From Candidatus Aenigmatarchaeota archaeon (GTDB taxonomy: Archaea; Aenigmatarchaeota; Aenigmatarchaeia; GW2011-AR5), in assembly GCA_016187335.1 (NCBI GenBank), contig JACPJW010000001.1, positions 32,001 through 96,000 on the forward strand: 64,000 bases of DNA, given 5' to 3'. Shown piece after piece: positions 18,045 through 55,412 of the stretch. A program made the translations under genes and the position numbers. The notes under the pieces were generated by a model. The model was not told where the DNA came from and did not search any database. It was given only the letters and a program-made list of their open reading frames with translations. The number at the start of each line of letters is the position of its first letter. Within the stretch, counting starts at the first letter, position 1.

Positions 18045-18137
18045 AAGGAGAAACTGCGTTTCTCCCTTTACCCTCTTCCTTTCTGAAAAAGAAGGGAATG
18101 AGGTTACAAGGAGAGAACCGTAGGTTCTTCTCCTGTT
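18045..18137 (+). other. BHB intron 1 of tRNA-Glu (D-loop 20a/21), built of repeat modules
   Basis: Central helix CCGG/CCTG (3 of 4 pairs), bulges CA|A and TT|A, inner stem AGGAGAA/TTCTTCT. Confidence 0.75.
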
Positions 18138-18154
18138 AGGATATCGGCCTCTCA

Positions 18155-18234
18155 GCACCCTTTCTTTTGAAAAAGAAAGTGTGCACGGAAAGAAAACTTC
18201 AGAAAAGCGTGAACGGAAAGAATGGGTGGAAGTT
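18155..18234 (+). other. BHB intron 2 of tRNA-Glu (37/38), contains repeat module D
   Basis: Central helix CTCT/GAAG (one C-A mismatch), bulges CA|G and TT|C, inner stem CACCC/GGGTG. Confidence 0.85.
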
Positions 18235-18337
18235 CGCCGAAGACGCGGGTTCAAATCCCGCCGGGAGCATAGAATTATCGGGATATATATAGCAACGGAA
18301 AAATTGAACGCTGACGTATATCCTGAAGAATATAGAA

Positions 18338-19798
18338 TTATGGTGACTGACAGTCAAATGTAATATTCATAAAAACTTGTGAGTTTATAGGCATAGACAA
18401 TTGTGTAAAGGTGAATCCATTGTTGTCGTTATTTGAAAATGAGTTCCTCGTAGAAGCCCAGAATATTCTCCTACTTGTTTCTATATCACAATAATTTGAA
18501 TTTGTGCAAGTTGAAAGTCTAACATCTTCAATAATCGTTGCGTTACTAAATTTACCAGTCACATTAGTAATTGAGCATAACCTTCCTATGTTCTGGAAAG
18601 CTTGAAGAAAGACTTCTTGAATTACAAGATCTTTTGGAAGGTTGTTTGTAATATTAACTTCAAAATAAGATACGTTGTAGATTTTTCTAACGTCTGTTTT
18701 TGGGATTTTGATTTTATCAATATTTCCTTGATCCAATACAAATCCAGTGAGATTTATCGACCTAAAAGAGAAGTTTGACCCAGTCAAAACAATTACGTTA
18801 GAATTATTGTAGTATATTACTTCCTTAAGTCCAATCTTATTGAATTCGTCATACTTTTGTTTTAAAGAAATTGGGTATGTTCTATATGTTTCATTAACAT
18901 TCAATATTACTCCAAAATAATTTTGATATGCATAATTGAAATCCAGATCATTAACAGTATAGTTTCCAATTTCAAACGGTACCCATCCATAAAACCCTTC
19001 ATTTTCTATTTCAAATTGTTGAGATTTGTGTTTGTAAAGAACTGCATTATTGAAACTTTCAAAACTACTAACAGAAGTACCATTACCGTCCAAGTAATAG
19101 AAATCAGTACTTTCTGAAATGAAATGTGTCTGTGGCATAGAGGAATAACTTATTAAAGTAAAAATTATCAAAGACGCGATAAGAAAACTAATCAAAAATT
19201 TCCTTTCGAATGGCTTTAGAGTTACAACGGGTAGTTCATATTTGATCTTATTGTTCTTATACAAAGTCAAACATACCAACGATAAAATTACTAATGAAAA
19301 TGATGTTTGAAGAAGAATAATAGAAAATATTCCATATGCCGAAAATATTGCTGTTGCGCTATTCAGAAGAATTACGCAGGACAAAATGAAGAAAGCAATA
19401 ATACCCATTTCTAAAGCTAGAAATGAATTTTCACGCTCTTTTTTTGAAAATACTCCACCCCATACAAAAACAATACTTAGAAGTAAGATAAAACTTATTA
19501 TGTAATTCAAACTATCAATAATATTTTTATTATATAGGAAAATATTGTTCGAATAAACTAAAAATCCACCTATAACAATGTAAAGTGTAATGTATACAAT
19601 TAGCCCAAGTCCTCCTGAAAGAATTAACTTATCAACATCGCTCAATCCAAATCTAAATTTTTTTGATTTGAAATCGTAAGTTGATGCAAAAATTAACGAA
19701 TATCCAAGAAATAAGACCAATACTTTAACGAGCGTATTAGCACCGAAATAATCAAAGGCTGCATTTACAGCGTCTGCAATTCCAAGTGGGTCTGCCAT
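18338..19798 (-). CDS. AT-rich multi-pass membrane protein with large extracellular domain
   Basis: About six N-terminal TM segments, Asn-rich C-terminal domain, very low GC. Confidence 0.75.
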   Translation of the reverse strand: MADPLGIADAVNAAFDYFGANTLVKVLVLFLGYSLIFASTYDFKSKKFRFGLSDVDKLILSGGLGLIVYITLYIVIGGFLVYSNNIFLYNKNIIDSLNYIISFILLLSIVFVWGGVFSKKERENSFLALEMGIIAFFILSCVILLNSATAIFSAYGIFSIILLQTSFSLVILSLVCLTLYKNNKIKYELPVVTLKPFERKFLISFLIASLIIFTLISYSSMPQTHFISESTDFYYLDGNGTSVSSFESFNNAVLYKHKSQQFEIENEGFYGWVPFEIGNYTVNDLDFNYAYQNYFGVILNVNETYRTYPISLKQKYDEFNKIGLKEVIYYNNSNVIVLTGSNFSFRSINLTGFVLDQGNIDKIKIPKTDVRKIYNVSYFEVNITNNLPKDLVIQEVFLQAFQNIGRLCSITNVTGKFSNATIIEDVRLSTCTNSNYCDIETSRRIFWASTRNSFSNNDNNGFTFTQLSMPINSQVFMNITFDCQSP

Positions 19799-19941
19799 AA
19801 TTCACATACTTCAGTGAATTATTAAACAGTCTAATTACGGACTTTTTCGGACCCTTCAACTTCTCCACTTTTCCCTGCCTTTCGCGGGAGCATTTTTCAC
19901 GCCCTTCTGAACGCTATTAATTCGTTCCTGTCCTATTCTTC

Positions 19942-20538
19942 ATGATGAGGGAGTTCATAATGCGCGCGAGGAAGGCGCACACGAAGCCTGACGTGAACCT
20001 TAACGAGCTGCCGCAGCAGGGGAAGATGGACTCGGTCTGCGCGGCGATAGCAGGCGCGCTGTGGATATCAGGCGACGTGAGGAGGGACACGGCCATCCAT
20101 GTCGTGCTGGAGGGTCCCGGCAACGCGCCGAAGACCATAAGCTTCTACGGCTCCGAGATAAGGGGCCTGCGCCACGATGAAAGATCTATGGCTTCGTACA
20201 TTGCCGACGCGCTGAAGAAGGGCGCGTGGCTGGAACTGAACGAAGAGGCAAAGGTCAGGACGGGGATAAGGGTCGCCAAGAAAAGTTTTGAAAGGCTGGT
20301 TTGGGAAAAGAAAGGAAAGAAGATGTTCGTCCTCGACAAGGACGGCAGGGACATAAGGGACGCCGAGATTCCCGCGGATTGCGTCATAATCTTCGGCTCC
20401 GCGGAGGGCCTGCCGGCAAAAACAGAAAAGCTCTTTCGCGACCTCAGGGCGGAAAAAATAAGCCTCGGGCCGACGATGCTCTTTGCCGCCCACTGCCCGG
20501 TGATCGTTAACAACGAGATGGACAGGAGAAAGCCCTGA
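19942..20538 (+). CDS. trmY: tRNA (pseudouridine54-N1)-methyltransferase
   Basis: MREFIMRA...GKMDSVC...RRDT...VLEGP...GLRHDERS; SPOUT C-terminus KISLGP. Confidence 0.9.
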   Translation: MMREFIMRARKAHTKPDVNLNELPQQGKMDSVCAAIAGALWISGDVRRDTAIHVVLEGPGNAPKTISFYGSEIRGLRHDERSMASYIADALKKGAWLELNEEAKVRTGIRVAKKSFERLVWEKKGKKMFVLDKDGRDIRDAEIPADCVIIFGSAEGLPAKTEKLFRDLRAEKISLGPTMLFAAHCPVIVNNEMDRRKP

Positions 20539-54155: not shown

Positions 54156-54253
54156 CAGCTATATATTAACGGCTCGTATATTAAATTTGTGAGATACTAA
54201 AACGGAAATAAGGGCTCAAAGAATCGTTGGGCCAGTTACTCTTTTTGTCTTAG

Positions 54254-54691
54254 TTAAGGAATGGCTATGTCCGCAGAGAAGCTGGTTCCGCAGTTCGCTG
54301 CGAAAACTTCCACGCGCAGCGGCTTCGTGCTGTCCTTCGTGTCATAAACAATCCAGTCGTTGTATCCAGGCGGCATGGGATCCATGAAATTCAGGTCCTT
54401 CATTGCTATGTTCGAGTGCGCTTTTGTTTTCGTGGCGTTGGCATATATGACGTTGGCAGCCATGCCGGATAAATTGAAATTCGTTTTCTGGTTTGTGACC
54501 TGCACGGTCAGTAATGTCCCGGAAAATGACGGCGATCTGAGCCCTAAAGCCCCGACGCAGCTTTCCTTTTCCTCGTTTTTTTCAAGACCTTGTTGCGAGA
54601 ACCTTGTTGCCCAAGAGCCTAGTATGCCTGCAATAGCGAGGGTAAATGCAATAAGCAGTATAGCAGCTATAAGCGGCGAAACACCTTTCAT
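54254..54691 (-). CDS. Archaeal type IV pilin
   Basis: MKG|VSPLIAAILL; start moved to 54691. Confidence 0.88.
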   Translation of the reverse strand: MKGVSPLIAAILLIAFTLAIAGILGSWATRFSQQGLEKNEEKESCVGALGLRSPSFSGTLLTVQVTNQKTNFNLSGMAANVIYANATKTKAHSNIAMKDLNFMDPMPPGYNDWIVYDTKDSTKPLRVEVFAANCGTSFSADIAIP

Positions 54692-54723
54692 GCCTAACTT
54701 ATGGGATTCCTCCCTTAAAAAGT

Positions 54724-55332
54724 TCAGTCCATCGCGCATCCTGTCAGCTGCTCGTAAAGCTGCAGCGCCTGCACGCCGATGTAAGGCGTGTTGTTGTACA
54801 CGGTTGTCGGAACCTGCGTGATGCCCACCTGCTGGCATAACTGCAGGTTTGCTCCGGTGCAGTCAACGTAGAATTTCCTGTAGAAAGAGCCGAGAACCTG
54901 CAGCTGCGCCTGCGTGTTCACCTCATTGATCTGCCCGAATACAAGCAGCTGCTTCCCTGCAAGACATTCTGCAAATGACTTCTCTTTCGTGATACGTTCA
55001 AGGAATGCCTGCGTATTTACGGCGCGGTCCGTGAACAGGGCGCCGTCACTGCTCACTAAAATTTCCTGGACCTGCCTGCTGCCCGAAGCGTCGCGCGTCG
55101 CTAAAATCACCCTGTACATTCCGCTTTCTTCCTTTACATTGAGCACCTCAACGGGGCCTTCTGTTATCGTTTCATAGATTTTTTTTACTTTATCAACGGC
55201 TGCTTCCTGCTTTGCCGTTTTCTGGCCTGTTGCAATGTAGCTGTTGTAAACAATGAAAAGTAACGCAAGAACAAGCACGGCAATCAGGCCGTAAAGCAGT
55301 CTGTTGTCTTTTGCTGCAGCTTTATCAACCAC
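54724..55332 (-). CDS. Membrane-anchored thioredoxin-like protein lacking CxxC
   Basis: FAECL...LLVFG...YVDC...LCQQVGITQVPT. Confidence 0.6.
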   Translation of the reverse strand: MVDKAAAKDNRLLYGLIAVLVLALLFIVYNSYIATGQKTAKQEAAVDKVKKIYETITEGPVEVLNVKEESGMYRVILATRDASGSRQVQEILVSSDGALFTDRAVNTQAFLERITKEKSFAECLAGKQLLVFGQINEVNTQAQLQVLGSFYRKFYVDCTGANLQLCQQVGITQVPTTVYNNTPYIGVQALQLYEQLTGCAMD

Positions 55333-55380
55333 GGATTATACCCCACTCTTTCCTTAATAATGCAAATAAATCTTTTAAAG

Positions 55381-55412
55381 CCGAACTTTTTAACAAAAAG
55401 TTTGATCAAAAA
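55381..55412. repeat. Repeat module B (opposite orientation)
   Basis: CCGAACTTTTTAACAAAAAGTTTGATCAAAAA. Confidence 0.8.

Follow-up and report, generated by a model that had tools for sequence, protein, structure and literature searches.

We analysed a 64,000-nucleotide (nt) stretch of DNA (the window, C2:32001-96000) from a Candidatus Aenigmatarchaeota archaeon (genome of 1.01 Mb in two contigs, 47% G+C, 91% complete), whose DNA is contained in sequencing runs from groundwater metagenomes. Its tRNA introns, an insert in its signal recognition particle (SRP) RNA gene, its spacers and the 5′ regions of its pilin-like genes share one interlinked set of hairpin modules, A to E, related by copying. 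We consider it probable that these modules are several interlinked repeat families of 20-90 nt, which multiply by copying to new DNA sites in this DPANN archaeon and its relatives. The five modules had been described in an initial annotation made from the window alone; all of them were recovered where it had placed them, at frequencies far above chance. The observation proved to be real and wider than the window, and the interpretation attached to it was partly supported, being right in outline and over-reaching in specifics.

Module B has the form NNAACTTTT-loop-AAAAGTTNN, followed by ATCAAAA(CGG). Defined strictly as TTTTGAT, two variable bases and AACTTTT, the motif matched the window 15 times against 0.23 expected, a count reached in none of 100 shuffles, and a slightly looser form of the pattern gave 109 copies genome-wide, all of which carry one asymmetric tail. 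Along the direction of transcription the hairpin precedes ATCAAAA, frequently as ATCAAAACGG, and its pairing ends exactly where the tail begins. Among 105 copies, 92% can form both of the outermost pairs, versus 26% in shuffles, with four pair types represented. Each module is a hairpin with variable yet complementary outer stem pairs and a fixed single-stranded tail. Most copies span 19-25 nt; about 10% genome-wide have a larger interior holding other hairpins.

Module D is built as NNN-CCCTTT, a variable inner hairpin and AAAGCG-NNN, in which the two NNN triplets are complementary, followed by CGGAAA; its stem contains a constant C-C mismatch. The triplets flanking the frame (before CCCTTT and after AAAGCG) pair in nearly all copies in the CCCTTT register, and outer pairing reaches a pooled mean of 2.42 of 5 positions compared with 1.88 in shuffles (shuffle maximum 2.14). 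The intron form of both B and D has a second copy of the 3′ arm downstream of the tail, so that the 5′ arm is able to close the whole intron beside bulges. The E hairpin combines a conserved TCTCAG loop with a covarying stem, the C hairpins form a recurring doublet that stands alone or is enclosed by B arms, and A is a cassette of about 60 nt consisting of an A/T-rich box, AATGAGGGTAGAG, a hairpin with one bulged T and then TCTAAAGG. The modules are found singly, in tandem or combined. Within the window, hairpin A was located at 44205-44231, 51171-51197 and 51812-51835 and also at 48977, 49468 and 18110; C hairpins at 44350-44444, 45675, 47028, 49595, 51241 and 51934; D at 42735-42769 (in the SRP RNA insert), 46234-46268, 43720-43753 and 18158-18219; and E at 43183-43200, around 49036 and at 51866-51883. 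Every window copy lies in a tRNA intron, the SRP RNA insert, an intergenic spacer or the 5′ end of a pilin-like open reading frame (ORF).

Comparison with a same-genus genome (the congener, G001) and 29 other relatives provided the evidence for copying. Exact-pattern B copies number 88 here, 25 in the congener (an assembly of half the size and 56% completeness, so that its module counts are lower bounds) and 0-9 in the other relatives, against 0-2 per genome for a reversed-pattern control; the distribution of D is patchy, with 0-17 copies per genome. Contig C72 of the congener is syntenic with the window at 42.9-55.7 kb, and its genes are 72-82% identical. About seven of ten syntenic spacers differ by whole modules, which are present in one of these congeneric genomes and absent from the other. 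An 88-nt composite on the minus strand (45615..45702), in which B arms surround two C hairpins and a ATCAAAACGG tail follows, lies right after a stop codon and is 88/88 identical to a copy at the non-syntenic site G001:C79:19442-19529. The region of that second copy is syntenic with C1:13.8-17 kb of this genome (74-82% identity), and the congener's site syntenic to the window's composite is without it. Contigs from four groundwater runs break at the repeats or show repeat-mediated joints and gave no usable strain-level presence/absence signal.

Copies of the modules are also found as predicted introns. The tRNAs were read by eye because ARAGORN missed or mis-assigned them: its default mode reported no tRNA in the window, missing all three intron-rich ones, and with introns allowed several tRNAs were mis-assigned, the window's first (anticodon CUC, Glu) being called tRNA-His. 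Bulge-helix-bulge (BHB) motifs, for which two 3-nt bulges with a 4-bp helix between them are expected at the intron boundaries, were likewise read by eye only. That first tRNA (18026..18268, plus strand; T-arm and acceptor stem seen directly) contains two long module-built introns, which include hairpin A with an AATGAGG prefix at about 18095-18133 and D at 18158-18219. In a second tRNA (24731..24884, minus strand) the D-loop is interrupted by a 44-nt intron (about 24821-24864), itself a B module consisting of 5′ arm, 3′ arm, ATCAAAAC tail and second 3′ arm, and a further B hairpin (24699-24731) follows the 3′ end of this tRNA. Genome-wide, B-type introns occupy at least six positions in six tRNAs (T-loop, D-loop and anticodon). 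They share a core of about 35 nt and diverge in the final 6-8 nt, which pair with the exon at each site. A TTCG/CGAA helix was recognised in the T-loop introns, and the tRNA-Leu intron shows a relaxed motif only. The 5-nt CGAAT direct repeats around the T-loop introns were considered as target-site duplications and rejected, because they arise from the TTCG/CGAA pairing of the BHB central helix (palindromic TTCGAA).

One of these introns appears to be young. Outside the window, tRNA-Leu(GAG) (C2:254215-254400) contains a 44-nt B-type intron at position 37/38 (C2:254319-254362), which is missing from the congener's tRNA-Leu(GAG) (C68:4544-4685), whose flanks are 142/142 identical, and from the GAG isoacceptors of four more relatives. 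Its absence from five relatives in all indicates, by parsimony, a gain in tRNA-Leu(GAG) after the genus split, and for at least one module copy this sequence comparison supports a recent gain as an intron. The 142/142 identity covers the tRNA, its D-type second intron and a trailer hairpin, in a setting where neighbouring genes are 72-80% identical, which means either unusual constraint or a recent exchange of the entire gene.

The 16S rRNA gene (C2:239678-242953; locus L106 3679-6954, minus strand) is 3276 nt long compared with the 1478-position model. Many of its inserts are small (about 45-65 nt) and some are larger; D and B modules are among them, one insert splits the universally conserved CCAGCAGCCGCGGTAA region, and a LAGLIDADG domain lies within the gene at C2:241283-241411. 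The genome also encodes the splicing endonuclease EndA (PF01974, 97.4 bits, C2:410532-410810).

The SRP RNA gene (42695..43085, plus strand; RF01857, 97.9 bits) was the sole match in an Rfam search of the window, scoring barely above the Rfam threshold, and no Rfam family matched any module. It is 391 nt long compared with 268-272 nt in most of the 27 relatives with an SRP RNA match, and has 142 nt where the Rfam model has 23. Alignment with 12 relatives delimited a putative BHB-type insert of 120 nt after CCUGU (42731..42850, plus strand), which opens with the D module at 42735-42769 and is closed by GAGACC/GGTCTT. On inspection, its motif consists of a GCCT/GGGC helix, GTA and AAA bulges and the inner helix GAGACC/GGTCTT; what had been described as D inside E is this ordinary closing helix of a D-type intron and not the separate E hairpin. 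Taking the insert out leaves CCUGUAACCGUC, which is near the uninterrupted RNAs of relatives. SRP RNA inserts were found in 8 of the 27, at two sites, and most of them begin with a D-type hairpin. Those after CCUGU, of about 50-130 nt, occur in seven genomes including this one, with different and mostly D-like contents, and one relative (G012:C1:122821-123377, locus L013) has a D-type insert at a second SRP RNA site instead, in the long helix close to the GNAR and helix 8 region. The congener's contig ends within the SRP RNA. A minor groundwater contig was observed to have a 3-nt deletion and a 6-nt insertion at window positions 42789 and 42824, both within the insert, which is consistent with relaxed constraint there. 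The trailer of the gene (43095..43200, plus strand) contains B hairpins (43102-43136), a conserved hairpin and the E hairpin at 43183-43200, which is missing at the congener's syntenic site. In the library searched, no paper describing an SRP RNA intron was found, only one on the permuted Thermoproteus SRP RNA (PMC4731332).

Enrichment outside coding regions was also checked. The 15.6% of the genome without an ORF of at least 100 amino acids (aa) contains 77% of the 109 B copies, versus 12% of the matches in the interiors of such ORFs, which make up 70% of the genome. On inspection, the ORF-interior matches were almost all ORF ends, N-terminal over-extensions or spurious ORFs over rRNA or tRNA genes. 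Two copies were found in frame: a 36-nt D module in the prolyl-tRNA synthetase (ProRS) gene (about C2:578085-578120), which adds 12 residues and is missing from eight relatives including one at 73% identity, and a B module that, tail included, occupies a variable linker in a multicopper-oxidase-like protein. For the latter protein no orthologue was found in the 20 relatives searched; its insert was compared with solved laccases only. Both inserts have a length divisible by three and no stop codon, and the two copies appear to persist in the mature proteins. The claim that no module occurs in mature coding sequence stands for the window and fails genome-wide; the modules are strongly but not absolutely depleted from mature sequence. 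Copies persist where extra sequence is harmless, namely in spacers, pilin 5′ regions and RNA genes, and rarely in surface loops of proteins. In addition, three ORFs (C2:661067-662296, 113648-114700 and 752037-752789) were seen to end in a B module, from which they gain their last 10-15 residues and stop codon.

Archaeal type IV pilin-like proteins are the products of a gene cluster on the minus strand (43219-52533), as Pilin_N matches and a Lys-Gly before a hydrophobic helix in the translations support; the spacers of the cluster are chains of hairpins. Pilin_N scored above its cut-off in two ORFs and below it in four, and the genes at 48357, 49079 and 49719 were recognised by the KG-plus-hydrophobic pattern alone; an A24 prepilin peptidase (PF01478, 31.5 bits) is encoded elsewhere in the genome. 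Hairpin A lies upstream of the Lys-Gly codons in seven pilin-like genes, out of about 12 A copies, and others are found in two tRNA introns and one tRNA 5′ leader. In three of the genes, the ATG closest to the hairpin on its upstream side shares the reading frame of Lys-Gly, so that the hairpin would be leader-coding; in two, a TTG right after it gives Met-Lys-Gly, so that it would belong to the 5′ untranslated region. The reported placement of A in prepilin leaders accordingly fits three genes with an in-frame ATG and does not fit at least two others. One non-pilin gene has a stop codon in the loop of hairpin A, in frame with the preceding ATG. At locus L038 175-600 (C2:893374-893799), a non-pilin ORF crosses module A in another frame from an upstream ATG, and the module's own ATG is closed by a TAG in the hairpin loop.

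Among the copies, the 3′ arm of hairpin A is read in two different frames, which indicates that constraint there acts on nucleotides rather than on the peptide. The 23-nt A prefix was found with up to three mismatches in eight genomes of seven genera; one site is variously G, T or A, which reads in frame as Val, Leu or Ile, and this leaves room for some peptide-level constraint. In an orthologue pair at 45092-45613 the two leaders are equal in length and only the congener has hairpin A, which suggests that the hairpin came by replacement or gene conversion and not by simple insertion. At the syntenic site the congener lacks both the pilin-like gene 43758-44282 and the module-rich spacer upstream of it (together 43758-44525); the two look as if they arose when the neighbouring pilin gene 44526-44972 was duplicated in tandem along with its spacer.

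The other copies in and around this cluster are on the minus strand. A D-type module (43700..43757) follows directly on the stop codon of gene 43758-44282, at a site where the congener's syntenic sequence is 96% identical. The spacer and 5′ region of the same gene (44190..44525) are composed, in order, of two tandem B hairpins starting from the upstream gene's stop codon, a D tail, four C hairpins and hairpin A, which sits at 44205-44231 between the ATG and the Lys-Gly cleavage codons. The D module at 46234..46268 also follows directly on a stop codon, and the congener's syntenic site is without it. A 365-nt spacer (46781..47145) crowded with B, long-B and C modules is about 270 nt longer than that of the congener. 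Upstream of the pilin-like gene 48357-49211, the segment 48950..49081 comprises a B hairpin, a tail, an E hairpin, an A/T-rich box and hairpin A (48977-49002); the spacer upstream of gene 49079-49642 (49400..49718) contains three B modules, two C hairpins and hairpin A (49468-49492) and is about 190 nt longer than its counterpart. Two C hairpins and hairpin A (51171-51197) in 51163..51270 lead directly to the TTG-AAG-GGC (Met-Lys-Gly) of gene 49719-51482, and upstream of a DUF7266-like gene (51804..51970) B arms around two C hairpins (51889-51968) are accompanied by a tail, E (51866-51883) and A (51812-51835). Elsewhere in the window, a spacer copy on the minus strand (37780..37850) has a B hairpin nested in a D frame (CCCT..AAGCG-NNNN-CGGAAA), a spacer B hairpin on the plus strand (55370..55411) is antisense to the flanking genes, and a D module on the plus strand (6701..6739), beyond the range covered by the initial annotation, takes three of its outer stem bases from a TGA stop codon. 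The nesting of C inside B at 51889-51968, as first described, is real. That the modules grow by insertion into hairpin loops, as proposed, could not be established; the extra hairpins of the 88-nt form break up its 5′ arm rather than its loop.

We then weighed the copied-repeat reading against other explanations, of which the most serious is that the modules are functional cis-elements kept by selection. B, D and C would be signals for the 3′ ends, stability or processing of mRNAs and stable RNAs, A a translational or regulatory element of pilin genes, and the introns BHB scaffolds, with copying incidental through duplication, gene conversion or domesticated repeats. Several observations lend themselves to this explanation and weigh against the modules being primarily multiplying repeats. 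The non-palindromic parts are kept across genera: the A prefix, C doublet and D frame are 80-100% identical there (the C doublet 80-90% in other genera, and the D frame conserved while its inner hairpin varies), compared with 45-75% for proteins, and such conservation is also consistent with selection for function. In co-directional spacers, 47 of 61 B copies are oriented with transcription and 14 against it, and 18 of 44 B hairpins begin in the range from 3 nt inside to 4 nt past a stop codon, with TGA, TAA or TAG frequently making the first stem bases, so that B could have a role at mRNA 3′ ends. The placement of seven of the roughly 12 A copies before pilin-like genes and the complete identity of the tRNA-Leu(GAG) D-type intron and trailer between the two species fit a functional role as well. 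Further points that tell against multiplication as the principal process are the lower-bound nature of the congener's counts, the absence of a target-site duplication at two clean insertions, tRNA-Leu(GAG) and ProRS, and the lack of any match in the 91% complete genome to the transposase and reverse transcriptase profiles Y1_Tnp (PF01797), TnpB zinc ribbon, OrfB_IS605, DDE_Tnp_1 and RVT_1.

Selection for function does not account for the burst of copies in one genus, for the module differences in about seven of ten syntenic spacers between congeners, for a copy number that varies at least ten-fold among related genera, or for copies that are antisense to genes, in tandem, within protein-coding loops and within rRNA. 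No Rfam family corresponds to the modules, and the hairpin is followed by ATCAAAA rather than a U-run, so that it is no classical terminator. We regard cis-elements as a possible but rather unlikely explanation taken by itself; the copied-repeat and functional readings can be combined if the modules are domesticated repeats.

Less probable, and in our judgement improbable, is the system proposed in the initial annotation, in which an element adapted to niches removed after expression enlarges itself within its own loops and uses excised intron RNA as a source. Introns of tRNA, SRP RNA and 16S rRNA genes do contain copies, several pilin-like genes have one between start codon and Lys-Gly, both the A24 prepilin peptidase and EndA are encoded, nested forms occur, and the genome is probably intein-rich as well. 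However, most copies are in ordinary spacers, the two in-frame copies stay in coding sequence with lengths divisible by three and without a stop, and A is untranslated in at least two genes and has a stop codon in its loop in another. Removal after expression is only partly right as a reading and does not extend to the majority. Nor does the location bias show adaptation to splicing or leader cleavage, since purifying selection produces it for any insertion. Spacer copies are without the second 3′ arm that every intron copy has, which argues that they are not simple re-insertions of excised introns, and the search for a reverse transcriptase was negative; the idea that new copies stem from excised intron RNA consequently received no support, and DNA-level copying is likelier than an RNA route.

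The proposal that the modules are non-autonomous fits the outcome of the partner search, in which the 91% complete genome yielded no autonomous partner. Of the genes that the initial annotation had suggested looking for, neither a RAYT (Y1) transposase nor a reverse transcriptase was found. The search did return a single tyrosine recombinase, which is probably Xer-like, and many LAGLIDADG domains, most of which lie in very long frames. LAGLIDADG_3 occurs in at least seven open frames of 827-1430 aa (C2 639002, 557994, 278932, 708554, 414717, 97107 and 352218), which are probably inteins, making this small genome one rich in intervening sequences at the protein and RNA levels.

A reading of the hairpins as simple terminators without common descent, or as palindromes that arose by chance in A/T-rich spacers, can hardly be true: they are A/T-rich and frequently placed right after stop codons, but their tails and frames are asymmetric and common to the copies, an 88/88 identical copy exists at a non-syntenic locus, copies lie within essential RNA genes, and the reversed-pattern control and the missing U-run agree, which excludes terminators unrelated by descent. 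Other identities were tried and rejected. As intrinsic terminators the hairpins fail because their stems are A/T-rich and run into ATCAAAA instead of a U-run. C/D box sRNAs have RUGAUGA and CUGA boxes with guides of about 12 nt between them; no more than roughly one B copy in four reads TGATGA, and CTGA is spaced 7 nt from it. The hammerhead ribozyme core motif was not matched, and the box after D (AAAATATTA) was dismissed as a promoter, since better TATA boxes lie nearer the starts and the box also occurs inside introns. Both of the standard tools run, ARAGORN and Rfam, handled this genome poorly, and ORF extensions run into the repeats, which matters for its annotation.

Several known kinds of element resemble the modules. 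Transposed tRNA introns of Thermoproteales (Fujishima et al. 2010, summarised in PMC4090602) are near-identical introns at different positions of non-orthologous tRNAs, as are the B-type introns here, and imply copying between BHB-capable sites by a mechanism that the review calls unknown; a 2026 preprint on Asgard tRNAs (10.64898/2026.10.13.758758) likewise leaves the route of intron arrival open. Unlike those introns, the core described here is also dispersed in spacers, at stop codons, in pilin 5′ regions, protein loops, 16S rRNA and SRP RNA, belongs to a DPANN lineage and includes one gain dated after a genus-level split. Repetitive extragenic palindromic (REP) sequences and bacterial interspersed mosaic elements (BIMEs) share with the modules short extragenic palindromes, a conserved asymmetric flank, covarying stems, tens to hundreds of copies, tandem arrays, a location after stop codons and an orientation bias; in contrast to the REP/RAYT system, no RAYT/Y1 gene was found here, the host is archaeal, and copies also form predicted spliceable introns of RNA genes. 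Miniature inverted-repeat transposable elements (MITEs), including archaeal ones, are similarly small, non-coding and multi-copy, with inverted terminal arms and variable interior cargo; the modules differ in the lack of target-site duplication at the two clean insertions, in that no related autonomous insertion sequence was found, and in their one-sided tail. BHB machinery acting on non-tRNA RNAs and small introns in rRNA genes have precedents in the small rRNA introns of Thermoproteales (PMC4496867) and the permuted, BHB-processed SRP RNA of Thermoproteus (PMC4731332); unlike the latter, the SRP RNA here is collinear but interrupted, at two alternative sites within one family.

At the sites inspected, the host supplies the outermost stem bases. 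The closest relative shares the TTCGA of ProRS, whose complement is inside the insert, and at window positions 6701 and 46268 the stop codon or the bases directly after it form the outer 5′ stem bases. This suggests either that stems are lengthened into the flank, for instance through fold-back or template-switch synthesis, or that selection acts on pairing. Under the copied-repeat reading, modules would be copied at the DNA level through a host or foreign enzyme, recombination or template switching, and their outermost stem pairs would be extended into the host flank during or after insertion. A copy with the extra 3′ arm in an RNA gene could then form the inner helix of a BHB motif and be cut out by the tRNA splicing endonuclease, and the modules would be both cargo and raw material of tRNA, 16S rRNA and SRP RNA introns.

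More speculatively, the modules may be a vehicle of archaeal intron gain: a small DNA repeat without an enzyme of its own, able to land at any place in the genome, would turn into an endonuclease-spliced intron of tRNA, rRNA, SRP RNA or mRNA once furnished with a matching extra arm. Its outer stem would be assembled during insertion out of the host's flanking bases, as fold-back or template-switch synthesis could do. We regard this idea as possible but rather unlikely. If it is true, one element would explain the stop-codon hairpins, leader-peptide inserts, mini-introns and protein-loop inserts of DPANN archaea. The ProRS insertion is a sister event that shows how a raw insertion looks in protein-coding sequence. 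Transposed archaeal introns and REP-like repeats are known kinds; what is added here is an intron gain tied to a traceable dispersed repeat, which recasts intron gain as a problem of repeat dynamics open to population metagenomes and endonuclease assays.

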